The notes under the pieces: model-generated | The model's database searches: none | The model's input: the letters and a program-made list of their open reading frames with translations, nothing else | What the model was told of the DNA's origin: nothing | DNA from: Malacoraja senta | Lineage: Eukaryota | NCBI GenBank assembly: GCA_038087875.1 | Contig: CM075989.1 | Coordinates: 22,694,001-22,758,000 of the forward strand | Reading direction: 5' to 3' | DNA length: 64,000 nucleotides | Shown: piece by piece, positions 7,061 through 54,903 of the stretch | Layout of the letters: each line of letters opens with the position of its first letter | How positions within the stretch are numbered: the stretch's first letter is position 1 | Position numbers and translations under genes: made by a program

Positions 7061-10000
7061 TCACTGTCCTGATTACGTTACTCATTCCTTCTATCCAGTG
7101 ATGCTGCCTTTCTCATTCTCCTACCTTCTCCCCAAACCCCTGACACCCGTACTAATCAAGAATCTATCTATTTATCTCTGCCTTTAAAATATCCATTGAC
7201 TTGGCCTCCACAGCCTTCTGTGGCAGTGAATTCCACAGATTCACCACCCTCTGATGTTGGGAAGAATCTCGGTTCTTGTACAGCTAAACAATGTTAAGGA
7301 TTGTGTTTTATGATTAATTGGTCCCTGGTGTTGTGTCTCCAGCATAGAAGGAATGGATGCGAAAGTGGAATCATTTAGAACTCGTGTGAACAGAATATCA
7401 TTGACTAGGTGGGCCAAAGGGCCTGTGGTCATGCTGTATCTTTCAAGCAATAAGTTGAAGTTGTCGTGTATGTTTAGTGGAGTCCACAGCCCCCCAGCCT
7501 AGAAAAACATCTGAACAATTCTCACAATGCTCCCACCGTTTCTCCTCCTGTGGAAATTCGCCTTAGTTTGTGACTTTTTGGGGTAAGTTTTCATAAGGGA
7601 TAAGAGCAGAATTAGGTAATTCGACCCATTAAGTCCACTCCGCCATTCAATCATGGCTGATCTATCTCTCCCCCCGTCAACCCCATTCTCCTGCCCCCTC
7701 CCCATAAACCCCTGGTCCATTGGTGTAAAAGGTGTTGGGGGGGGGGGGGGGGTCCGTGGATCGAGCTGCCAGAGGAAGTAGTCGAGGCAGAAACTATAAC
7801 AACATTTAAAAGACATTTGGTCAGGAACGTGGACCGGGGAGGCTTGGAGGGATATAGGCCAAATGTGGGCAAGTGGGACAGTTTGGTTAGCAAAGTAGGG
7901 CCGAAGGGCCTGTTTCTGTGCTGTATGGCTCCAAAACTATGAATTCAGTGAGAGCTCATAATGGGCTTTTCATAAGCTAATCAATATTTCATCTCATTTT
8001 TGGGAGTGAATTGAAAATCTACTATAATGTCCTCAGATGTTATTTTGCAGATTATTCAGTATCTCCATTAAATAGAATATTTTTAGACCATGTTTTGGAC
8101 AACACACATGCACAGTTAGAGGCTGGATAATAATACCTTCAGCTGGGATTTGAACCAATTTAATTCAGAATTTATATATTTATTAAAACAGCGCCAGATA
8201 TCTGGGTTCGATCCTGACCTAGGGTACTGTCTGTACGGAGTTTGTACGTTCTCCCCATGACCTGCGTGAGTTTCCTCTGAGATCTTTGGTTTCCTCCCAC
8301 ACTCCAAAGATGTGCAGGTATGTAGGTTAATTGGCTTGGTATAAATGTGTAAATGTAAAATTGTCCCTAGTGTGTGTAAGGTGGTGTTAATGTGCGGGGA
8401 TCGCTGGTCAGTGTGGACTTGGTGGGCCTGTTTCCACGCTGTATCTCTAAACTAAACTAATCAATAGAAAAAAGATCAAAATGTGTTCTCTGAATGTGAT
8501 TAAATAACACCACTCAACCCACCAAAATTTCCCTTTCAAATTGCGATTCAGCTGTATCTTTAAGGAGCGATATTCTACAACGATGAACTGTACAGATCAA
8601 GTCTAAGTATTGCCACATCTCCTGCCAAAGGTTTTTCTCTAACAGATACCAATATTACAAACAGCGACACAAAGGGTTCAGCTCCCAGTCTGACAACAAT
8701 CAGGAGCACATTGAAAATATTCATTAAAAATACCAATAGTCACCTTCAATCAGAAATGTTTAACGGTTCATTTCTGGCAGCTCACGGAGGAAAGATACTT
8801 TGAATGGCGAAATTGACAAAAGACATATAGATGACTGACTAAAGGGACATTGTCAAAGAAACCTTGGATCACATTTTTTATTCAAGGTGAGGAAGATTGT
8901 CAAGCAGCTGAGTTTGTAACCATTCTCTGCACAGTCGTACAGAGAAGTGCAGCCAACCTTTTTAATCACGTCATCTCCTGAAAGGCCCTATTTTTAAAAG
9001 ACTGATAGGAGCTAAGTCAAAGACTCATTTCTTTTTGAGGCATTGTACGCTGATGGTGACTTAGGAGCAGGATCAAAGATATATATATTTTTGGTGTGGT
9101 ATTGTGGCTTTGACTTCATCACTCCATTAACTTATTTATGCAGACAGAACAATCGAAAGAGGAACAAAATTGATATTTCTGGTATTTACAAGGAAATGCA
9201 GATGGGGGTTTTACTGAAGATAGCTCTCCATGTTCTCCAGTTCAGGCTGCACGGTGGTGCAGCGGTAGAGTTGCTGTCTTGAGAGACAGAGACCCTGGTT
9301 CGAATCTGACTACGGGTGGTGTCTGTACGGAGTATGTACGTTCTCCCCGTGACCACGTAGGTTTTCTCCGAGATCTTCGGTTTCCTCCCACATTCCAAAG
9401 ACATGCAGGTTTGTAGGTTAATTGGCTTCAATACAAATTGTAAATTGTCCCTACAGTGTAGGATAGTGGTAGTGTCCGGGGTGATCGCTTGTTGGTGGGC
9501 CGAAGGGCCTGCTTCCCCGCTGTAACTAAAATAAATCGATAAACCACTGAGTTACTCCAGCATTTTGTGTCTCTCATTGATATTTCTTCTTGCATACTTT
9601 GTGTCTCATGTTGCATCTTGGAACGGCGGTAAATACAGACCAGGTAGTCTTTGTAGTCAGTGTAGAACGCCTCAGAGGGCGATGGAGGCCGCTTCTCTGG
9701 ATACTTTCAAGAGAGAGCTAGATAGGGCTCTTAAAGATGGCGGAGTCAGGGGATATGGGGAGAAGGCAGGAACGGGGTACTGATTGTGGATGATCAGCCA
9801 TGATCACATTGAATGGCGGTGCTGGCTTGAAGGGCCAAATGGCCTACTCCTGCACCTATTGTCTATTGTCTATTGAAACAGATAATTCTCGTGACAAAAT
9901 TAGTTTTGGTATCTAACAAGATACAATCGTGGCATTGTGGCATTAGCATCTCTGGAGCGAAGGAATGGGTGATGTTTCGGGTCGAGACCCTCCTTCAGAC

Positions 10001-11008
10001 GAGTGCTGTGTTCAGTTTTGGTCACCTTGTTATAGGAAGGATGTTGTCAAACTATAAAGGGTACAGAGTAGATTTACAAACTGAAGAAGGGTCTTGAACC
10101 GAAACGTCACCCATTCCTTCTCTCAGGAGATGCTGGCTGGCCCACTGAGTTACTGCAGCATTTGTGTCTATCTTAGATTTACAAGGATGTTGCCAGGACT
10201 CGAGGGCTTGAGCTATAGGGAGAGGTTGAGCAGGCTAGGGCGAATAGATAGGGTGAATGCACTGTGCCTTTTACCCAGAGTAGGGGAATCAAGAACCAGT
10301 TTAAGATGAGAGGAGAAAAATTTACTGGGAAACTGAAGGGCAACATTTTTCTACAGAGGGTGGTGGGTGCATGGAACGAGCTGCCAGAAGAGATAATTGA
10401 GTCAGGTACAATAACAACATTTGAACAGGTACATGGATAGGAAAGTTTAGGTGGATATGGGCCAAAATGCAGGCAGGTGGGACTAGTGTTGATGGGACAT
10501 GTTGGCCAGCATGGGCAAGTTGGGCTGAAGGACCTGTTTCCAGGCTGTGTGGCTCTTTGGCTATTTAATTTACATATATCCTGCTCCAATAACTCTTAAA
10601 CTTGGAGAAGTCTTGTTTGTGACTGTTTTACATAAATCCTTTTAGTGCAGTATACACTAGAAAGACTATGATTCACTAATTGAACACAGCGAGCACTTTA
10701 CATAAGCTGCGACATGAAATACAAGAAGACCAACACCACGGCAACTGGCAATACCTCCTGTCAGCAGTTAATTACCTTGCATTTAGGAATTTACACCAGT
10801 TCGACTTTTCGCCTGATTCTTCTTCACTTGAAGCCCTTTACCCTCAATCAGCAAGTTACCTCACAAATTGCAGATATCGGTTTGTGTGGTTGTATTTGGA
10901 GATTAATAGGCAATCTGCACAGCCACTTTTTATTAGGGACTTGAGGGGTAACGTTTTCATACAAAGGGTGGCGGGTGCATGGAACAAGCTGCCAGAGGAA
11001 TATCCTTA

Positions 11009-11330
11009 AAGCCCTGTCCCACTGTACGAGTTCATTCCAAGAGCTCTCCCGAGTTTAAAAAAAAATCAAACTCGTGGTAAGCACGGAGAATGAACGTAGC
11101 GGGTACGTCGGAGCTCGGGGACGTCTCTTAGCGCTAACGGCAGGTACTCGGGAAGACTCGCTAACGGCAGGTAAGCACGGGAAGACTCGTGAAGATTTTT
11201 CAACACGTTGAATAAATGTCCACGAGAGCCCCGAGTACCGACGAGCGGCCATTACCGTAAATCTCCGAGTTCGAATCAGGGCAAACTCGGGAGAGCTCTT
11301 GGAATGAACTCGCACCGTGGGACAGGGCTT
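11009..11330. mobile_element. PIF/Harbinger-type MITE
   Basis: ~48-bp TIR aagccctgtcccac..ctcccgagttt; TTA on both flanks. Confidence 0.8.
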
Positions 11331-12225
11331 TTACGGCGGAGAATTGTGCCTTACTGTTTCCGCACTGTACAATTATATGACGCCATGACTCCGTGAATAA
11401 CTCTATGAATGACTCTATAACTCTATCCCTCTATTACAGATACAAATACGACAGGGTTTCTATACTCAGTACAGACTCAGAGAATTACCCCAGTAAAGTT
11501 CGATTCCACATCCCAATAACACACATTGATCTCAAGCAGCTAGCAGCAGCAGTCTTTTGAAACTCTGACAGGGATCTATCCAGCAGAAGGAAGAACTATA
11601 ACTGCTTCCAGGCCCACGGGATTCAGCAAACAATATATACAAAATAAAAGCACAGATACTGGGTTGTTTGGGCTTTTCTGACGCAGGCATGACCAGAGGG
11701 CACAGACAGTCCTGGAGTCAATTGGAAACGTTCCAACGGGCTACCGTTCCACATTGCACGAAAATCAGCATAACAGATAGACAATCCAATTTGGACACCC
11801 CCAGCCATCAACCACCCTCCCCACATCCCCTTGAGTTCCGCAATGCTCTTCACAAGGTCCCTTTACGCTTTGGCTTTCAATCACTGTCTTTTCCAGAAGA
11901 TCATGACACCTACGCTTATGCACCCCCCCCCCCCCCCCGCCCCCAACTTGATCACCAACATCTGCTTGCAGTTTTGAGAGATTACAAGGTGCTATCAGAC
12001 TGTACATTTACTGCATCACAAACTCAACCAGTTGACTTCATTTCCCAGCCAGCAGCTGGAGGTAATACTTATTTTTTGTTCCTTTGTTTTCACTTTCTTC
12101 CCGATGGTCTCTATAACATTGCTGCAAAGTTGATTGGAGTGCTCGCTTTCTGAATTTGATTTGGAGAACCTGGGCACTCTTCCAGCTGCCTGGAGCCAGA
12201 ATTGGCTCCAGATTCCCTTACCTCC

Positions 12226-12388
12226 TTAGCATTCCATCACCAGCCCTATCCTAGGTTCGGGGGCAGCTCCCCGGCTAATAGCACTCATCATTTCTCCATC
12301 CTTCCTGTTAATTGAGTGCAGCAGAAAATTCATCAGTGCTGCCGCCACCTTACAGGGATTCTCACCGCCAGTGTCTTCATAGAAAGTT
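12226..12388 (-). CDS. Last coding exon (TFYEDTGGENPCKVAAALMNFLLHSINRKDGEMMSAISRGAAPEPRIGLVMEC*)
   Basis: ttttaactatgcag acceptor, phase 2 start, TAA at 12228-12226. Confidence 0.85.
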
Positions 12389-12808
12389 CTGCATAGTTAA
12401 AACAAGCGTTTCGTTGCCGTCATTCTCAACTCCAACCTGACCCCGCTCCCATCGAACCACAGAGTCATTGAAAAGCACGAGGCCAGTCCATCTCACCCCC
12501 CTGCAGATCAATGCTGTCAATGCCTACTCTTTCCCATCAAGGGACCTTGTGAAGAACATAGCCTTGCAAATTAATTCCTCACAGTTCACCTATCCACTTC
12601 CCTTTTCTAAACCGATTGCTCCTGTGTCAACCCGTATACAGGCAGGGGGATGCAGATCGGGGCCATCCTTTACTTACACTTATTTTTTTCTCACATCCCC
12701 TGGTTGCCCTGTGCTTGCCTTTTTTGAATGTTTAACCTTGTGGATCATTTCAACTGTCCATCAACAAGAGCAGCAACTGTCTGTCCTCATCTTAGTCAAA
12801 TCCTCAGA

Positions 12809-13123
12809 GGGCGGGCACGGTGGCGCAGCGGTAGAGTTGCTGCCTTACAGCGCTTGCGGCGCCAGAGACCCGGGTTCGATCCCGACTACGGGTGCTGCCT
12901 GTACGGAGTTTGTACGTTCTCCCCATGACCTGCGTGGGTTTTCTCCGACATCTTCGGTTTCCAGAGACGTACAGGTTTGTAGGTTAATTGGCTTGGTAAA
13001 TGTAAACACTGCCCCCAGTGTGTGTGGGATAGTGTTAATGTGCGGGGATCACTGGTCAGCGCAGACCCGGTGGACCGAAGGGCCTGTTTCCGCGCTGTAT
13101 CTCTAACATAAACTAAACTAAAC
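12809..13123 (+). mobile_element. tRNA-derived V-SINE (HE1-like)
   Basis: Full head gggcgggcacggtggcgcagcggtag, A/B boxes, (aaact)n tail. Confidence 0.9.
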
Positions 13124-14017
13124 TGTGCTCTTTACTCTGAGAACAGCATGAGCTGAGAGTCACAGAGTCACACAGCGTGAAAACAGGCCCTTCAGCCCAA
13201 CTTGCCCACGCCGACCAACGTGCCCCATCTACACCGGTCCCAACAGCTTGCGTTTGGCCCATATCCCTCCAAATCTGTTCTATCCATGCAATTCTCCAAA
13301 TGTTTTTTTAAATGTTCTATAGTTGAAGCCTGCAGCAAACATCCCTGGAACCAATCCCATCTGCATCCCATCCATGACTTGCACATACTCACTAAAGTTC
13401 AGAGATAGTACATAAACAGACAACTCATACTCCGGTACGCTCTGACCATTGATCACATATTCACCCATATCTATAAATGTCTCAATTGTAATCCTGTATT
13501 GTCTTTCATGGACTGGATAGCACTCAACAAAAAGCCTTTCACTGTACCTCGGTGACAATAAACTGAACTACACTAAACGCCAGTTCTATGTTAACCCACT
13601 TTCACTTCCATCCCATACACACTAGGAGGAATTTACAGAGACTAAATTAACCAACAAACCTGCAGGTGCTTTGGAATGTGGGAGGAAACCGGAGCACCCG
13701 GAGAAAACCCAGGTGGTCACGGGGAGAATGTGCAGCCGTAGTCAGGATCAAACCCGGGTCTCTGACGCTGAGAGGCAGCAACTCTACCGCTGCACCACCA
13801 TGCCATAATGACCTCAACCCAACACACCACTGATGGTCTAACTATTGATTCGTGGAGGTTTTGATGTAACAGTTCTGGATATTTCTCCCCCATTGGAGGG
13901 GAACCAAATAGGTTTTTACGGGCAAAAAAAGATGCAAAGTGCTGGAGTATCTCAGCGGGTCAGGCAGCATCCCTGGAGGTACAAAAAAAGACTCAGATGC
14001 TGCCTGACCCATTGAGT

Positions 14018-14154
14018 CTTCTTCTTGTGTGTGGCGTGCACAGTCTAAAGTTGCAGGTCAACTTGTTCTATTTGATCTATTTGTTTGTGCACGTCGGGTT
14101 AATTGCATTAGTCGAAACAGGGTGGACCACGTGAAGGTTGCAATCTCCCACCCC
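14018..14154 (-). mobile_element. 137-bp non-autonomous retroposon with ribozyme head and (GAA)n tail (Vingi/ingi-like)
   Basis: TSD attgagt at 14011-14017 and 14159-14165; inserted in a Penelope remnant. Confidence 0.75.
14101..14154 (-). ncRNA. Minimal HDV/CPEB3-like self-cleaving ribozyme (predicted), copy 1
   Basis: P1 GGGGUGG/CCACCCU (G1-U wobble), P2 GAUUGCA/UGCAAUU, P3 ACC/GGU, L3 UUCACGU, J4/2 ACUAA. Confidence 0.75.
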
Positions 14155-14774
14155 ACTTATTGAGTTAATCCAGCACTTTGTGTCTTTTATTTAAACCAGC
14201 ACTTGCATTTCAACGGATGCACTCATGTACGGTACGATCTGCCTGGATGGCACACAGAACAATGTTTGTTTGCTGTTTCTTTATATACTTGACCATAATA
14301 AACCACTACCTATGACAATAGCAATATGTGCACCTTACAACACTGGGGCATATAACAATGAACTCCACTTGACTGGTTAGACATTGATAAGGATGAATCC
14401 ACTAGTCCAGGGCTTCAGATTGAAGAACGGTCTCGACCCAAAACGTGACCTAGCCATGTTCTCCAGAGATGCTGCCTGACTTGCTGAGTTACTCCAGCAC
14501 TTTATGTCCTTCTATGCAATTATTTCTTTCTTCATAAATCCATAAGTTATAAGAGCAGAATTAGGCCATTCGGCCCATCAAGTCTACTCCACCATTCAAT
14601 CATGGCTGATCTATCTTTCCCTCTCAACCCCATTCTCATACCTTCTCCCCGTAACTCCAGACACCCGTACTAATCAAATCCTTTGTACCTCACTTTCATC
14701 TAGTTTTTGATTCCCATCTAAGATCTGTTCAAGCATGTCATACTCCTGGGAACACATAATTGTACCACACTTAC

Positions 14775-14918
14775 CTGACAGTAACCAGCCTGTCATATTC
14801 TTCTGCTGTGAAGTTGTGCAGAATGTCTTGGGCAGGATTGATCTGAATGCAGTTTGCTTCATTCTGATGGCAGTCAATGAATCTACTAACACCAGGTTTG
14901 TTGTAATTGATATTCTTT
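14775..14918 (-). CDS. Coding exon (KNINYNKPGVSRFIDCHQNEANCIQINPAQDILHNFTAEEYDRLVTV-R)
   Basis: ctctcatgttcag acceptor, AG|gtaagt donor, 144 nt, phase 2->2. Confidence 0.9.
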
Positions 14919-15131
14919 CTGAACATGAGAGCTTATTGAGCAGTACCTTACCAGATCAATCCTGGATTTCATTAGAAAGCCATAACAATAATCATTCAGT
15001 GTTGGAAAATTGACTCCACAGTAATTCAATTTGTGGCACAATTACGCTGTTGAATGCTCAGTTGTGTCTGTTCCAATTTTAAGGTGAAACATGGAGTCAC
15101 CGAATCTGAAACAGGCTCTTCGGCCCTTGTT

Positions 15132-15445
15132 GGACACAAAATGCTGGAGTAACTCAGTGGGACAGGTAGCATCTCTGGAGAGAAGGAATGGGTGACGTTT
15201 CGGGTTGAGACCCTAGTTCAGAATAGTCAAGGGGAAAGGGAAATGAGAGATATAGACGATGATGTGGAGAGATATAGAACAATGAATAAAAGATATGCAA
15301 AAAAGTAACGATGATAAAGGAAACAGGCCATTGTTAGCTGTTTGTTGGGTGAAAATGAGACTTGGGTGGGGGAGGGGTGGAGAGAGAGGGAATGCCGGGG
15401 TTACTTGAAGTTAGAGAAATCAATATTCATACCATTGGGTTGTAA
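15132..15445 (-). mobile_element. Penelope-like 3' fragment (LQPNGMNIDFSNFK* plus 3' UTR)
   Basis: Same ORF end and tail as 48885..49415. Confidence 0.75.
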
Positions 15446-15948
15446 AGGGAGGGGGGGGGGAATAAACTAGAGGTGAGAAGGGGCCAGAATGAGTTGCTCC
15501 AGCATTTTGTATCTATCTTCACTGCAGTTTGCCAGCGGTCTATTAACTGTAGTAAAAAAAGATAATAGGACAGTGGTAATGAAGGGTTAAAATCTGCTAT
15601 AACATGCACTAATGTGCTCAATAATGAGATTGAATTACTCTTGCGTTAGTCGTTAGACTCTTTTGCATATCTAAAGGATGATGATTGAGTATCTGCCAAT
15701 ATAAATACAAGTGAGTGACACAGCTATGGTGTCAATCGCAGAGGAGGTCCACATGTATGGAAAATGCCTTTGAATTACTTCAGTCCACATGTCTGTTGTA
15801 ATGCATGAGGGTATTGGAATAATGGTTTTCCCCTCCTTCTGATTAACCAGGTATTACTTGTTACTAAAAAGTGTACTTCACTTTCATTAAAGCTATAGCC
15901 CTTAAAGATTGGGCGGCACGGTGGCGCAGCGGTAGAGTTGCTGCCTTA

Positions 15949-16342
15949 TGCCCCTGTCCCACTTAGGAAACCTGAACGGAAACCTCTGGAGACTTTGCGC
16001 CCCACCCATGGTTTCCGTGCGGTTCCCGGAGGTTTTTGTCAGTCTCCCTGATGGTCGAAAGTGGTTTCCGCACCTTCTATGTTCCGGCGATTACTTTTAA
16101 AAATTCAAAACCGGCCACGACTAAAAATAGGTTGCCGTTTTAAAAATCGGTAATTTTTTAGTTGAAGATAAGACCTCCCTGGTGGAATAAAACTGGGTGA
16201 AAAAAAGGTCTTACCTTCCACTACCTGCAACCTCCGGCAACCACCTTCAACTAGCATCACAACCGGCTTTGACTTAAAATATTACCGATTTTTTAAACGG
16301 CAACCTATTTTTAGTCGTGGCCGGTTTTGAATTTTTTAAAAA
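15949..16342. mobile_element. Truncated Harbinger-type MITE inserted at TTA in a SINE head
   Basis: Left end tgcccctgtcccactt; internal ~63-bp inverted repeat; right end absent. Confidence 0.7.
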
Positions 16343-18757
16343 GCCTTTGTGACCCTTTGACTTCATGAGTGGGGCAATGGGAACGCTTGATTTTTTCCCC
16401 CTTCTTAAGCTCGATTAGTTTGGTTTAATTTAGTGGTACAGCATGGAACCGTGTCCTTCAGCCCACCGAGTCCACGCAGACCATCAATCACTGGTACACT
16501 AGTTCTATATAAGCCCACTTTCGCATCCTACACACTGGGGGCAATTTACAGAGGCCAATTTTTTACCTACAAACCTGCACGTCTCCGTAATGTGGGGGGA
16601 AGCCGGGCACCTGGAGAAAACCCACACAGACACGAGGAGAACGTATAACGAAAAGCACAGACAGCTTCCGTAGTCAGAATCGAACCTGGGTCTCTGGCGC
16701 TGTGAGGCAGCAACTCTACCGCTGCGCCACAGTGCTGCTGTGAAGGTAATTCAGTTTAACGTTAAACGTCTGAGAATTTCCTTCAGGAAAATATCAGGCT
16801 CTTCAGGCAAGAATTTCTGTGCAAGCATCAAAAGCATGTGTGAGATTATAGACTGGGTATTGATATTAATCGAACTGTGAATTGCAGTGTGGTATCTCAC
16901 AGCGTTACAATGAATGAATGAATAAGTTTATTGGCCAAGTATTCACATGCAAGGAATCTACTGTAGTATCTCACAGTGTTACAATACACTATCCCAGCCT
17001 CGGAATTGGAACAAAGCCTTGGATGAATGAAATGCATATCGGTCGTAGCATGAAACCAGTCCTTTAAACTTATTTATGATGCTGAAAATGGATCTAGATC
17101 AAGTGGTGACACACACTGCCAAACCTGCCTGGCTGCCTCATGTTAGAAAACCGACTCTCGACCAAATGGAGACTTGTTCCGTTGTAATTAAAAATAACAA
17201 ATAAAATCTGCTAGAAATCTGTACCAAGCAAGTCTAACATTTCGTGACAGATCTGTAACAAGGCTAACAAGCTCACTTTTAGTGTGGGGACAAAAACCCA
17301 GATCTGCTGGAGAAAACCCACGCGGTCACGGGGAGAACGTACAAACTCCATACAGACAGCACCCGTGGTCAGGATCGAACCCAGGTCTCTGGCTCTGTAA
17401 CTCTACTGCTGCACCACCATACTGTCCCCCCATGTCATGATCCAGTTACACCTAGCCCACGATCAACAACCTTATTTGTGCAGCTATTGATTACATATAT
17501 ACCTGTACATAATACAATGCTTAATATTGTACCAGCTTCAAAGTTGTCTTGTTGAGTCTCATTGTCTGTAACTCATTTTCACCTAGACCACAGCTAACAA
17601 TGGCCTGTCTCCTTTATCATCGTTACTTTTATGCATATCTTTCATTCCCTTGTTCTATCTCTCTGTATTTCACCATCTACCGTATATCTCTCGTTGCCCT
17701 TTCCCCCTGACTCTCAGTCTGAAGAAGGGTCTCGACCCGAAACATCACCTGTTCCTTTTCTCAAGAGATGCTGCCTGACCCGCTGAGTTACTCCAGCATT
17801 TTGTGTCTCCTAGATACGTCATATGCCAGCAACAATCAATAGCCTCAGACCAAAAGGATGTAACTTTAGAAAGGCGATAAGGAGGAATTTATTTACCTCT
17901 ACAATAAACATCACCAAAGATCTTTTGAACTACCGATAACAAAACATAACGAAGTATAGAAACATCACCTATTCCTTCTCTCCAGAGATGCTGTTTGACC
18001 CACTGAGTTACTCCAGCTTTGTGAGTCTATCTTTGGTTTAAACCAGCATCTGCAGTTCCTACCAACACATATGACATATCTAGTTTGTTGAAACAGCCAA
18101 CATCATTATTGTATAGGGTGGGCAGTTAGAAGAAGTATGTAGAATGATGAGAGACATAGATAGGGGAGACCAGAATGGAAATATCAAATAATGACAGGGG
18201 CAAAGTTTAAATGAGATGTGCAGAGCAAGTTTTTTATATGAATGCAGAAGATGGTGAGTTTCTGGAATGCACTGCCAGGGGTGGTGGAGACAGATACGAT
18301 GATTCAATGGTTCAATAGTTTATTTATTCTGTACCAGTGAAAGGTACAGTGAAATACATTTTTAGTGGCAATTAGAGAATTTTAGAAGGATGATGGGACA
18401 CATCATTGAAACTTACCAAGTAGTGAAGCGCCTGGATAGAGTTGATGTGGAGGATTTTTTCCACTAGTGGAAGAGTCGAGGACCAGAGGGCACAGCCTCA
18501 CAATAAAAGAACATACCTTTAGAATGGAGAAGAGGAGGAATTTCCTCAGCCAGAGGGTGGTGAATCTGTGGAATTCATTGCTACAGATGGCTACGGAGGC
18601 CAAGTCAGTGGATATTTTTGAAGCGGAGATTGACAGATTCATGACTAGTACAGGTGTCAAGGTTTATGGTGAGAAGGCAGGAGAATGGGGTTGAGAGTGA
18701 AAGATAGATCAGCCATGATTGAATGGTCGAGTAGACTTGACGGGCCAAATGGCCTAA

Positions 18758-19045
18758 TGGGCCTGTCCCACTTACGCGATTTTTTTCGGCGACTTGCCGG
18801 CACCCGTCATAGTCGCAGCAAGTCTCCGAAAATTTTCAACATGTTGAAAATCCAGCAGCGACCAGAAAAAGGTACAACTCTTTGGGCGACTACTCACGAC
18901 CATACAGGCGACACCCCGCGACAGAATCGTACCTTTTTCTGGTCGACGCTGCATTTTCAACATGTTGAAAATTTTCGGAGACCAGCTGCGACTATGACCA
19001 ATGCTGGCAAGTCGCTGAAAAAATCACGTAAGTGGGACAGACCCT
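18758..19045. mobile_element. Harbinger-type MITE, largely palindromic
   Basis: TAA duplicated (18755-18757, 19046-19048) within CR1 tail ggcctaattctgctc, which is seen uninterrupted near 54908. Confidence 0.85.
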
Positions 19046-20182: not shown

Positions 20183-20759
20183 TCAATAAAACAAGGTTTT
20201 GTTAAATGGGATAACAGGTTTGCCATGTTAAATTTAGTTTAGTTTAGAGATACAGCGCGGAAACAGGCCCTCTGAGTCCGCGCCGACCAGTGATCGACAC
20301 ACACTCGCGCTATCCCACAAACTAGCGACAATTTACAATTTTACCAAGCCAATTAGCCTACAAACACGGACGTCTTTGGTGTGTGGAAGGAAACCGGAGC
20401 TCCCGGATGAAACCCACACAGGTCCGTACAGACAGAAACCCACTCCGTACAGACAGCACCCGTTGTCAGGATCGAACCCGGGTCACTGGCGCTGTAAGAC
20501 AACAACTCTACCGCTGTGCCACTGCGCCACTGTGCCACTGTATTAAGAGGACAAGATTTAGGAAATCTTCTCATCGGTTCCATTAAGGTGAGAATTGGGA
20601 GTATCACCAGAAATGTTCATTTTTTGTCTTGAGGAGAGAAAGATCACAAAATGTTGTGGATAAATGTCAAAACTGAGGAACCAAGTCAATAAAAACACCT
20701 TTGAAGAAATGTTGGGAATGGTTAAAGAGCCCTTTCTAAAAAGGAGAATAGATTTCTTA

Positions 20760-20878
20760 TTTCTTCTTCTAAAGTTGTAGGCAACTTGTTCTATTTGATC
20801 TTATTTGTTTGTGCACGCCAGGTTGATTGCATTCGTCGAAACAGGGCGGACCAGGTGAAGGTTGCAATCTCCCACCCC
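20760..20878 (-). mobile_element. Second copy of the ribozyme-headed retroposon (~18-nt deletion near the 3' end)
   Basis: TSD tttctta at 20753-20759 and 20881-20887; high similarity to 14018..14154. Confidence 0.75.
20825..20878 (-). ncRNA. Minimal HDV/CPEB3-like self-cleaving ribozyme (predicted), copy 2
   Basis: P1 GGGGUGG/CCGCCCU, P2 GAUUGCA/UGCAAUC, P3 ACC/GGU, L3 UUCACCU, J4/2 ACGAA. Confidence 0.7.
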
Positions 20879-21299
20879 GGTTTCTTACTATTTATGGCAA
20901 CTCAAAATAAATCAAGTTGACACTTGCTGAGTCCTGTTTTATTTTGTTTAGTTTGGAGATACAGCATGGAAACAGGCCCTTCAGCCCGCCGAGTCCAGGG
21001 ACCGGCGATCCTCGTACATTAACACTATCCTACACACACTAGGGACAATTTACAATGTTAACAATTAACCTACAAAACCTGTACATCTTTGGAGCGTGGG
21101 AGGAAACTGGAGCACCAAGAAGAGACTCATGTGGGTCACGGGGGAGAACGTACAAACTCCGTACAGACAGCACCCGTAGTCAGGATCGAACCCGGGTCTC
21201 TGGAGCTGTGAGGCAGCAACTCTACCCCTGCGCCGTCGTGCTGCCCCAAAGTCATTTGAGGTGAGATTAGTTTATCTTGGTATTGTGTTCAGCACAGAC

Positions 21300-45179: not shown

Positions 45180-46180
45180 ATAATAATAATAATAATAATA
45201 AGAATAGATTTTATTTATATAGCGCTTTTCAGGACTCAAAGTCGCTTTACAATTGAGAGTCAAGAATAAACAAAACAAAATAGAGCAGTAAGACAGAGAT
45301 GCAAAGGGGAGGGGAACATGGGACTAAGGATATGCAGAGGTGAAGAGATGGGTCTTGAGGCGGGACTGGAAGATGGTGAGGGACTCAGAATTTCGGACCG
45401 GTTGTGGGAGGGAATTCCAGAGCCTGGGAGCTGCCCTGGAGAAGGCTCTGCCTCCAAAAGTGCAGAGGTTTGATTTCGGAGTGGAGAGGAGACCAGCTGA
45501 TGTGGATCTGAGGGACCATGAGGGTTGGTAGGGGGAGAGGAGGTCAGTGAGATAAGGGGGGGCCAGGTTGTTGAGGGCTTTGTAGGTGAGGACCAGGATT
45601 TTGTAGGTGATCCGGTGGGAAATGGGAAGCCAGTGAAGTTCTTTGAGAACTGGGGTGATGTGGTGCCAGGATTTGGTGTGGGTAATGAGTCGAGCGGCTG
45701 CATTTTGGACCAGTTGGAGTCGTTTGATGCTGCTGGAATTGATTCCGAAAAGAAGAGAGTTACAGTAGTCCAGTCGGGAGGAGATGAAGGCATGGATGAG
45801 TCTTTCAGCAGCGGGGGGTGTGAGAGACTATCTGATTTTTGCAATGTTGCGGAGGTGAAAAAATGATGTTTTGACAACATGGCGGATGTGAGGCTCAAGG
45901 GAGAGGGTTGAGTCAAAGATCACGCCAAGGTTGCGTGCCTGAGGAGATGGGGAGACAGTGGTGCCGTCGATAGTGAGAGTGGGGTTGTTAATTTTAGTGA
46001 GTGTTGATTTGGTGAGCCAATGAGGAGAAATTCTGTTTTGCTACTGTTTAATTTAAGGAAGTTGAGTTGCATCCAAGATTTGATGGCTGATAGGCAGGAG
46101 TTGATATGGGAGAGAGGGGGGTGGTGGGGGGACTTGGTGCTGAGATAGATCTGGGTGTCATCAGCATAGCAGTAGTTCAC
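45180..46180 (-). mobile_element. L2-clade LINE 3' fragment (degenerate RT C-terminus)
   Basis: YCYADDTQIYLS...KLNSSKTEFLLIG in ORF 45920..46180; frameshifts; (tat)n tail. Confidence 0.85.
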
Positions 46181-51945: not shown

Positions 51946-54269
51946 CGCCAGCAAACCTATACATCTGTGGGAGGAAACCAGAGCACCCGGAGAAAACCTA
52001 CGCGGTCACGGGGAGACCGTACAAACTCCGTACAGACAGCACCCGTAGTCAGGATCAAACCTGGGTCCCTGGCGCTGCAAGGCAGCAACTCTACCGCTGC
52101 GCCACCGTGCCGCCCAGCTTCAAAGGGAATTTCTGGTCCATGTTTACTCGTGGCCTTTTGAACTTCATAATCTTCTTAAACATTTAATATTTCATTAAAA
52201 TCACGTTATGCAATCTTTAGTCCCAACAATGCTCCATATATATAGATCTCCACATTGTGGGAAAGTTCAGGAGGCTAATCCGGATTTTTGTTACTTAATA
52301 TTGCAGTTTATAAGAGGGATTTGCACAGGGAAAATTCGGTGGGAAACAGCTGTGTGTGTCTTTTCCACAAATGAGAACAATCTTTTTGCCCTCAGGAGTG
52401 GAACCCAGCACTCTGCCCAGTCCCAACCTTTCAAAACAAGCAATGATTTAAAAGAGAGTCTATCTAGACTGAGAATAAAAGCCAGCTCATCGTGGTCATG
52501 TTATAGCCATCTATTCTGTCGCGCTTGTGAAGTGACACAGACACGTGGGGTTTGGGGAGAATTTGGAGATTGGTAAAAATTTAAAACTTTTTCAAAAGAT
52601 CAGGGAATTGAGTTCCATGGGGAACCTGGGTAGCGGGTGGAGTTGCTGCCTCACAGCGCCAGATATCCAGGTTCGATCCTGACTACGGGTGCTGTCTGTA
52701 CGGAGTTTGTACATTCTAACCCGTGACCGCGTGGGTTTTTTCCGGGTGCTCCCGCACTCCATAGATGTAGAGTGGGAACAGTCAGAGGGGAGTTAATATT
52801 TCGGGTAGTTGACCCTTCATGAGGAGTGAACAGGGGAGGAGAGTGTGAGGGACAGGGATGTTAGATCCAATGATGAGCATGAAGACAACATCTACTGCAT
52901 CTACGGAAGGAACTGGGCAGAAAACCCTTCTTCAGACTGATGGAGTTCAAGGGAGAAATCTGCAAAAGAGAGATAGGGGTGGACAAAGACTGAAGAAGGG
53001 TCTCGACCCGAAACGTCACCCATTCCTTCTCTCCAGAGATGCCGCCTGTCCCGCTGAGTTACTCCAGCACTTTGAGTCTATCCTCGCAAGTGATGGGTGG
53101 GAACAGAGGAGACGGACTGATTGACAGATAGTTTGGAGATAGTTTGAGTTTAAGTATCAGTTTAGTTCCAGTTTGAGTTTAGTTCATGGAGCAAGGTCCA
53201 ATGAAAAGCTTTTGTTGCATGCTAAAGATATTGACAAAGCCTGGAGCTGAAATAGAGACAAAAGGGGATATGATAAGGAAGAGATGATGTGATATGTAAA
53301 GCCAGAGGAAGGGATAATGGGTGGAAGTGGGCAGCAGGGATGGGGGGGGTGGGGAATGAAGTGGGATAAAGAGGGTCTCAGTGCAGGGAAGGTGGGAAGA
53401 TGAGTGGGAGGAAGGAATGAATCAGGCTGACGAGAGCAGGGGGACAAGGTGTGTGCGTAGGGGAGGGGAGGGGAGGAAGAAACAAGATGCGGTATATTGG
53501 TGCCTTATAGTTTCGTTTAGTTTAGATACAGTGCCGAAACAGGCCGTTCGGACGACCGGATCCATGCCCACCAGCGATCCCCGCACTTTAACACTATCCT
53601 ACACACAATAGGGACAATTTGCAATTTACCAACGCTAATTAGCCTACAAACCTGCACGTCTTTAGAGTGCGGGAGAGACCCGGAGAAAACCCACGCAGGT
53701 CACGAAGAGAATGTACAAACTCCGTACAGACAGCACCCGTGGTCAGGATCCAAACCTGGTCCCTGGCGCTGTGAGGCAGCAACTCTACCGCTGCACCACC
53801 GTGCTGCCCTTATGGTAGAATGAATGTGGGGAAAGATGTGTACCAATTATATTTACTGTGCATATCTCATGAATAAAATATATCTTTGAAATATAAACTT
53901 TCATGTCCCACCATGCAGAACAGCACTGGAAGAGGCATGCTGGTTAAACTCATCGCAACTTGCTTGGTGATGTTTCCACATAGGTCTGGATCGAATGAAT
54001 GTGGAGAGGATGTTTCCACTAGTGGGAGAGTCTAGGACCAAAGAACTTTACGAAGGAGATGAGGAGGAATTTCTTTAGTGGTGAATCTGTGGAATTCATT
54101 GCCGCAGAAGGCTGTGGAGGCCAAGTCGGTGGATATTTTTAAGGCAGTGATAGATAGATTCTTGATTAGTACGGGTGTCAGGGATTATGGGGAGAAGGCA
54201 GGAGAATGGGGTTAGGAGGGAGAGGTAGATCATCCATGATTAAATGGTGGAGTAGACTTGATGGGCCAA

Positions 54270-54903
54270 AGCAAGAGGATTTGAGTATAGGAGCAGGGAG
54301 GTTCTACTGCAGTTGTACAGGGTCTTGGTGAGACCACACCTGGAGTATTGCGTACAGTTTTGGTCTCCAAATCTGAGGAAGGACATTATAGCCATAGAGG
54401 GAGTGCAGAGAAGGTTCACCAGACTGATTCCTGGGATGTCAGGACTTTCATATGAAGAAAGACTGGATAGACTTGGCTTATACTCGCTAGAATTTAGGAG
54501 ATTGAGAGGGGATCTTATAGAAACGTACAAAATTCTTATGGGGTTGGACAGGCTAGATGCAGGAAGATTGTTCCCGATGTTGGGGAAGTCCAGGACAAGG
54601 GGTCACAGCTTAAGGATAAGGGGGAAATCCTTTAAGACCGAGATGAGGAAAAACTTTTTCACACAGAGAGTGGTGAATCTCTGGAACTCTCTGCCACAGA
54701 GGGTAGTTGACGCCAGTTCATTGGCTATATTTAAGAGGGAGTTAGATGTGGCCCTTGTGGCTAAAGGGATCAGGGGGTATGGAGAGAAGGCAGGTACGGG
54801 ATACTGAGTTGGATGATCAGCCATGATCATATTGAATGGCGGTGCAGGCTCGAAGGGCCGAATGGCCTACTCCTGCACCTATTTTCTATGTTTCTATGTT
54901 TCT
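54270..54903 (+). mobile_element. CR1 (HER1-like) LINE 3' fragment nested in another CR1 tail
   Basis: ORF 54313..54807 LVRPHLEYCVQFWSP...TRGHSL...FFTQRVVNLWNSLP; (ctatgttt)n tail. Confidence 0.9.

Follow-up and report, generated by a model that had tools for sequence, protein, structure and literature searches.

A short retroposon family of Malacoraja senta with a predicted P4-less HDV/CPEB3-type ribozyme head and Vingi-like LINEs as its likely partner

Two short repeats in Malacoraja senta are members of a non-coding retroposon family of ~135 nt that is present in about 10^4 copies, and the first 54 nt of the family element are predicted to adopt a P4-less HDV/CPEB3-type ribozyme fold. Both repeats lie on the minus strand of the window (the whole stretch of DNA that was analysed: 64,000 nucleotides of contig CM075989.1, C13:22,694,001-22,758,000, from a 1.94-Gb genome), where interspersed repeats are plentiful. 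In our view it is probable that RNA of this family excises itself at its first base, G1, by means of the ribozyme head and is then copied by the protein of a Vingi-like LINE. The second of the two copies (copy 2) is ordinary when taken alone. The interest lies in a family of SINE size that has no recognisable Pol III head, in which an apparent minimal self-cutting RNA seems to define the unit that is copied, and for which cellular RNA ends match the predicted cut site. The elements of copy 2, together with the place of copy 1, are as follows.

20879..20889, minus strand: 5′ TSD copy, probably 11 bp, adjoining G1 and 9/11 identical to 20751-20761
20872..20878, minus strand: copy 2, predicted P1 5′ strand, with the predicted scissile position at G1 (20878), which pairs as G1.U36
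20860..20869, minus strand: copy 2, predicted P2 5′ strand (7 nt) and P3 5′ strand (3 nt)
20853..20859, minus strand: copy 2, predicted L3 (7 nt), with G25C at 20854
20841..20852, minus strand: copy 2, predicted P3 3′ strand, P1 3′ strand and J1/4 (G37-C22 forms the single-pair P1.1)
20825..20840, minus strand: copy 2, 5-nt stub that replaces P4, J4/2 with the predicted catalytic C (20835), and predicted P2 3′ strand
20770..20824, minus strand: copy 2, A-rich non-coding body from which ~18 nt of family sequence are missing
20762..20769, minus strand: copy 2, (AAG)n microsatellite tail
20751..20761, minus strand: 3′ TSD copy of copy 2
14007..14165, minus strand: copy 1 with its 11-bp TSD (14155-14165 and 14007-14017), G1 at 14154

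The element has a variable TSD, a 3′ microsatellite tail, no ORF and dispersed copies, as befits a non-autonomous non-LTR retroposon. The original prediction, made from the letters alone, had placed the 5′ end of copy 2 at G1 and had described it as a second insertion 6.7 kb from the first, and both statements hold, the two G1 positions being 6,724 bp apart. It had also read a 7-bp TSD with 2 extra nucleotides. The exact 7-bp repeat is real (20753-20759 and 20881-20887), but the additional nucleotides are probably not extra, because a reading of 11 bp abuts G1; the TSD of copy 2 is thus probably 11 bp long and contains two transitions. The TSD of copy 1 is likewise 9/11 identical when read as 11 bp, and a match of at least 9/11 abutting G1 is found in 54 of 65 family copies, against 0.8% of 3,000 mismatched pairs.

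Within the head (positions 1-54) the copies differ exactly at the four places that had been listed: position 25 in L3, position 32 in P1 (U-A in copy 1, U.G in copy 2), position 45 in J4/2 and position 54 at the end of P2 (G.U in copy 1, G-C in copy 2). At 32, 45 and 54 it is copy 2 that has the family majority base and copy 1 that has the derived base (A32, T45 and a private T54), and G25C is the sole derived change in the head of copy 2. The view that these differences preserve the fold is sustained for positions 32 and 54, which still pair, but not for the L3 change, which hits the G25.U20 metal-binding pair: G25 is present in 56 of 62 non-gap family rows and is replaced by C25 in copy 2. 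With G25A, the C. briggsae ribozyme showed no cleavage that could be observed within 60 s (PMC13635239). Since G25C alters a residue of the metal site, copy 2 is probably impaired, and is predicted to be a poor cutter. The deletion said to be confined to the 3′ body is real and amounts to ~18 nt when measured on the family reference, or 21 gap columns in the alignment with copy 1, but it takes out the 3′ arm of a predicted body stem together with the terminal motif that precedes the tail, and a separate 1-nt deletion lies at position 98. With G25C and without the 3′ arm and terminal motif, copy 2 is probably a dead end.

In the genome, C or T at position 25 occurs at 204 places; of the 100 such places listed, 72 have C and 28 have T. 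That G25C marks an amplified subfamily was considered and rejected, as 20 copies were fetched and the 10 with C belong to various subfamily backgrounds, which points to a recurrent CpG change and not to a lineage. Copies with G25C seem clustered near contig ends (for example C4:84-86 Mb and C3:87-90 Mb), possibly through GC-biased conversion, and copies with G25T are commoner within the interior of C1.

The predicted fold was approached from several sides. A descriptor of the HDV double pseudoknot matches only the two copies in the window, and shuffled sequences give 0.1 matches per window (2 in 20). Both copies can form the nested double pseudoknot of P1, P2, P3 and P1.1, in which P1 has 7 bp and the cleavage site is occupied by G1.U, and both have the catalytic-type C of J4/2 followed by N-A-A (C44, as in 58 of 64 non-gap family rows). 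L3, J1/4 and J4/2 of a near-majority copy are identical to the Rfam consensus of CPEB3, as is the L3 of the family majority. Rfam matches an 81-nt stretch of this near-majority copy only to two HDV-type families, HDV-F-prausnitzii and CPEB3, with weak E-values of 0.69 and 0.67, and the scores of the element lie far below the cut-offs (11.8 versus 35 bits for CPEB3, RF00622, and 14.4 versus 44). No match was obtained with Rfam at gathering level across the whole window, nor any HDV-type family in an E-value scan of 8 kb. Nested MFE folding gave no support (z = +1.36 for copy 2), as is expected of a method that cannot form pseudoknots.

Comparison of the two copies, on which the original prediction had leaned, proves little, because stem changes from copy to copy are no more pair-preserving than chance. 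Among 65 copies (two duplicates dropped), pairing survives in 16 of the 56 stem changes, where 22.7% would be expected (p = 0.34), and non-CpG stem positions are substituted at 2.67% against 2.37% elsewhere (p = 0.53); the expectation that substitutions in stems would be more structure-preserving was not borne out, and pairing kept between two copies fails as a structural argument. Family copies decay neutrally after insertion. Such a pattern is expected of dead copies and says nothing against the fold. The structural evidence for the predicted fold lies instead in other head families: the layout 7/2/7/3/7/3/7/2 recurs in at least four of them in this genome, with P1, P2 and P3 strands that differ in sequence yet are complementary. 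The single pair P1.1 is C-G in CPEB3-type heads and G-C in RTE heads. The heads of the RTE-A and RTE-B LINEs combine P2/P3 sequence like that of the element (the nearest sequence to the P2/P3 5′ strands of copy 2, at 20860..20869, is that of RTE heads of the same genome) with an unrelated self-complementary P1, a G-C P1.1 and a long P4; the automatic P2 partner of RTE-A is poor, so that only its P1, P3 and P1.1 count. The RTE-B head has no match in Rfam. The family head is predicted to cleave itself 5′ of G1.

The high genomic copy number that had been suggested from two insertions is borne out by pattern searches of the genome, which give 3,230 matches to the exact 24-nt head, 3,159 to the exact tail and 0 to controls. 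Capture-recapture, based on the exact head in 19 of 70 tail-selected copies, yields ~11,900 copies (8,300-18,800), probably an underestimate, and evenly placed samples (2 copies in 400 kb) yield ~9,700 (1,200-35,000). The tail-selected copies are the 70 that come first among the 3,159 tail matches, and every one lies on C1. When 5′ ends and TSD lengths were tabulated, as had been proposed, the ends proved not to be scattered: the alignment starts at position 1 in 56 of the 70 copies, at position 2 in 8, at position 3 in 2 and at position 5 in 1, with 3 headless copies, so that 67 of 70 start at G1-G5. A TSD scoring at least 7 flanks 65 of the 67 headed copies (null 7.5%), with a length mode of 11-13 bp. 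Of these 65 TSDs, 30 end at G1, 17 at +1, 4 at +2 and 1 at +5, and the other 13 stop 1-7 nt before G1. The core is intact in 27 of 65 sampled copies, and the common head variants (positions 8, 32 and 45) all fall at unpaired or pair-keeping sites. The element is present under eight organism labels, none of those listed being recorded as RNA, which carries no information on expression. Among individual copies, one carries an internal inversion inside the ribozyme head (L172), and a variant with A1 and A22 (L157:1489-1590 and L169:1457-1527) has a broken P1.1, with A1-U36 in L169; the A22 loop occurs in 6 of the first 100 core matches listed.

A related organism, in which 79-86% of words are present, has RNA of the element with ends at G1. 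Its raw reads (~1-5% of each run) were mapped on the near-majority copy; they stem from many copies and are not assignable to copy 2. In the single-cell run X21, 1,618 reads have an unaligned 5′ part before G1 with a 30-nt consensus (agreement 0.79), which we take to be a template-switch adaptor. Its three closing Gs add to the four Gs of the element, which argues against strand invasion, as for a true RNA end. The adaptor ends at the same place in 549 and 708 reads of runs X23 and X24 (agreement 0.41 and 0.44), mixed with flank reads, and contigs of run X16 contain flanks only, with no adaptor at G1. Poly(A) follows element positions 124 (188 reads) and 131 (338 reads) and may reflect internal priming on the tail. 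Hundreds of reads enter the element from varied flanks, so much of the element RNA is uncut. A control on the RTE-B head, which starts with C, was shallow, with 23, 23, 27 and 20 reads in the runs, none of which carried the adaptor directly before the head. Uncapped RNAs undergo template switching mainly if they start with G (PMC8754658), and this preference could explain both the strong signal of the element and the absent signal of RTE-B.

An adaptor joined at G1 fits cleavage or a transcription start alike, and G1 could be the start site of an internal promoter, either a Pol III-like one or one that doubles as a ribozyme in the manner of Pr77, with cleavage absent or secondary. The stub in place of P4 appears to resemble a degenerate B box, and along most of the element plus-strand reads in X21 are ~3 to 5 times as numerous as minus-strand reads. 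The heads of L1Tc and NARTc are both promoter and ribozyme (PMC4035085). We regard a promoter as unlikely, however: the tRNA, 5S or 7SL head of a classical SINE was not found (ARAGORN returned 0 tRNAs in 3 loci, and Rfam no Pol III RNA), the start falls exactly at the HDV scissile position across families with unrelated P1, and many reads run in from flanking DNA.

With the CPEB3 model (RF00622, cut-off 35 bits), 39 of 59 scored genome places pass, the best at 64.2 bits. Most of the top matches belong to the heads of a young LINE of 3.1 kb, 8 copies of which were fetched (96-98% identical; loci L318-L325, for example C1:217550400-217555400). It has one ORF, in which Pfam finds Exo_endo_phos (APE) and RVT_1 only, without RNase H, and its protein has a homologue in Anolis at 50%; LINE open frames of 1014 and 1008 aa occur at C8:934635 and C4:35486636. 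Vingi elements are compact, with a single ORF for an APE endonuclease and reverse transcriptase and no RNase H, and form the sister clade of Ingi (PMC13708176), a description that the young LINE fits by its sequence. At least five further divergent Vingi-like families (~50% protein identity) are present, most with an (AAG)n end. The young LINEs begin with GGGG, have L3, J1/4 and G1.U36 in common with the element, and end in (AAG)n with TSDs of 11-12 bp.

The remaining matches to the CPEB3 model comprise at least four short families. One is a second P4-less mini-family of ~170 nt (L308, L310, L314-L317) with C-C-A-A in J4/2 and an (AAG)n tail, the 3′ end of which is 87% identical to the divergent Vingi-like LINE of L340. 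Three more short families have CPEB3-like heads that retain P4 (L292/L296/L300; L299/L301/L303/L309/L312; L302/L305/L311/L313).

The 3′ end and the target sites of the element also resemble those of Vingi-like LINEs. The element has the terminal motif A(C/T)(A/T)CG-N1-2-AAGA, which was defined after inspection of the sequences. Among Vingi-like ends the motif was seen in 11 of the 20 divergent ones and 5 of the 8 full-length ones, and all 30 RTE-A ends lack it. A T two bases before the TSD is found in 35 of 57 copies of the element, 13 of 17 Vingi-like LINEs (p = 0.39) and 4 of 17 RTE-B copies (p = 0.011), the Vingi-like sample being the 17 with a clear TSD among 32 examined of 40 fetched. TC precedes the TSD in 17 of 57 copies of the element, against a background of 6%; neither window copy has TC before the TSD when this is read as 11 bp. 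An RTE partner was the first reading, and was demoted after the heads recovered with the CPEB3 model, the target bias and the terminal motif favoured Vingi-like LINEs, which on these sequence features are likely to be the best-fitting partner. Non-exhaustive searches for a LINE that carries the head or the tail of the element itself gave only altered short copies for the head (6 matches) and nothing that is a LINE for the tail (11 matches), and blastn of the element body against all Vingi-like and RTE copies fetched gave no homology. Bipartite non-autonomous elements, which keep the 5′ end of a LINE, are reported only from RTE, Ingi, Vingi and R2 (PMC5786205); among the copies fetched in the non-exhaustive searches, no single autonomous LINE had both 5′ and 3′ blocks alignable to the element.

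The head is not uniformly Vingi-like: positions 10-29 are identical to RTE-B at 18 of 20 places and to the Vingi-like head at 13 of 20, and it is possible that the head is chimeric or derived from RTE. In an alternative reading, the 5′ end is still fixed by the ribozyme and the protein comes from an RTE-clade LINE or from both clades, the head perhaps being of RTE origin or a chimera of RTE and Vingi. In its favour, RTE-A has an (AAG)n end, RTE-B yields many ribozyme-headed internally deleted derivatives, TSDs of 10-12 bp are typical of RTE (PMC6007223), and R2/R1 hybrid SIDEs provide a precedent for mixed origin, with head and tail from different LINE clades (PMC3414825). Set against this are the lack of the terminal motif in the RTE-A ends, a target bias unlike that of RTE-B, and the G1.U36, L3 and P1.1 polarity of the element, all of Vingi type; we regard this alternative, too, as unlikely. 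Only 6 of 22 RTE-A copies gave a usable TSD, too few for an estimate of their target bias. About 500 places in the genome match the RTE ribozyme core. Thirty of them were fetched, and the majority proved to be RTE-B derivatives with internal deletions, ~270-750 bp long and ending in (GTAA)n; their TSDs measure 8-15 bp and abut +1 in 11 of 17. The joined forms of these derivatives were also seen in the RNA reads of the related organism, and a further RTE-type ribozyme, whose P1 differs, heads an element of ~430 bp at L254:7860-8287 (minus strand).

That the fold is a mere vestige, with G1 starts resulting from the whole copying of a short unit and an RNA signal that is a library artefact at a run of Gs, would suit the neutral substitutions, the minority of copies with an intact core, the RTE-B control and the G bias of template switching, but is very improbable, as the RNA 5′ end must still be defined in each round of copying, the adaptor Gs are additional to those of the element, and the three common head variants avoid disrupting pairs.

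Self-excision at G1 followed by copying through a Vingi-like protein can be divided into five steps. A copy of the element would be transcribed inside a longer host RNA, as the reads from varied flanks in the relative indicate. The 54-nt double pseudoknot would then cleave just 5′ of G1, where RNA ends are found, and the released RNA would end in or near the (AAG)n tail. A Vingi-like endonuclease and reverse transcriptase, the putative partner, would nick targets resembling T-C|A and prime on the tail, which would leave the observed target bias and TSDs of 11-13 bp. Because the element RNA is short, nearly all insertions are full length from G1, as observed, and the resulting copies decay neutrally.

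In this the element would work like NARTc/SIDER and the R2 SIDEs (reviewed in PMC6765202). NARTc, RIME and SIDER, of the trypanosomatid L1Tc/ingi clade, are likewise short non-coding retroposons in which an HDV-like ribozyme head releases the RNA (PMC4035085), and their partner LINE belongs to the Ingi group, of which Vingi is the sister clade (PMC13708176). The present element differs in residing in an animal, in its 54-nt P4-less head with an L3 identical to that of CPEB3, in its number of about 10^4 copies, and in having no alignable 5′ or 3′ block in common with a found partner beyond the terminal motif. The R2 SIDEs of Drosophila are also non-autonomous elements with a ribozyme-defined 5′ end, but are rare and site-specific in rDNA (PMC3414825), whereas the family described here is dispersed and abundant. 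Minimal HDV-like or theta ribozymes have the same P4-less HDV fold, and four tested members cleave themselves in vitro; nearly 99% of them are reported from Caudoviricetes phages, linked to tRNAs, in contrast to the retroposon studied here, and the eukaryotes surveyed were human, mouse and protists (PMC10879173).

The mammalian CPEB3 ribozyme (RF00622) has L3, J1/4, J4/2 and G1.U36 identical to those of the element, which differs in its lack of P4, its other P1-P3 sequences and its score of 11.8 bits. It is a single intronic copy that is reported as not having been found outside mammals (PMC8233481), and yet the heads of Vingi-like LINEs here reach 64 bits on its model, which suggests a retrotransposon origin of the CPEB3 ribozyme. 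On balance we lean towards a scheme in which Vingi-like LINEs carry a 5′ CPEB3-type ribozyme and have repeatedly spawned promoter-less mini-retroposons (two of them P4-less), the mammalian CPEB3 ribozyme being a domesticated 5′ end of this kind. If so, these genomes provide the outgroups that the CPEB3 literature calls missing, and young LINE heads well over the CPEB3 cut-off make the origin of that ribozyme directly testable.

New here are a CPEB3-type head without P4 in an animal family of about 10^4 copies, RNA ends at its predicted cut site, and LINE heads above the CPEB3 cut-off in a non-mammalian genome. No paper on the element family or on a link between Vingi and CPEB3 was found among the top literature matches; Repbase, Dfam, subscription journals and supplements may already hold the family. 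Some 10^4 potential cut sites are dispersed in host DNA, and with about 4 in 10 sampled copies retaining an intact core, some could shorten host transcripts. Vingi elements serve as gene-insertion tools, a use for which self-cleavage in their 5′ UTR may be relevant. Within the window itself, a repeat of ~300 bp adjoins copy 2 (20935-21240) and is far more abundant than the element, with ~40 similar places, and LINE-like ORF fragments lie at 54262-54807 and 45324-45827.
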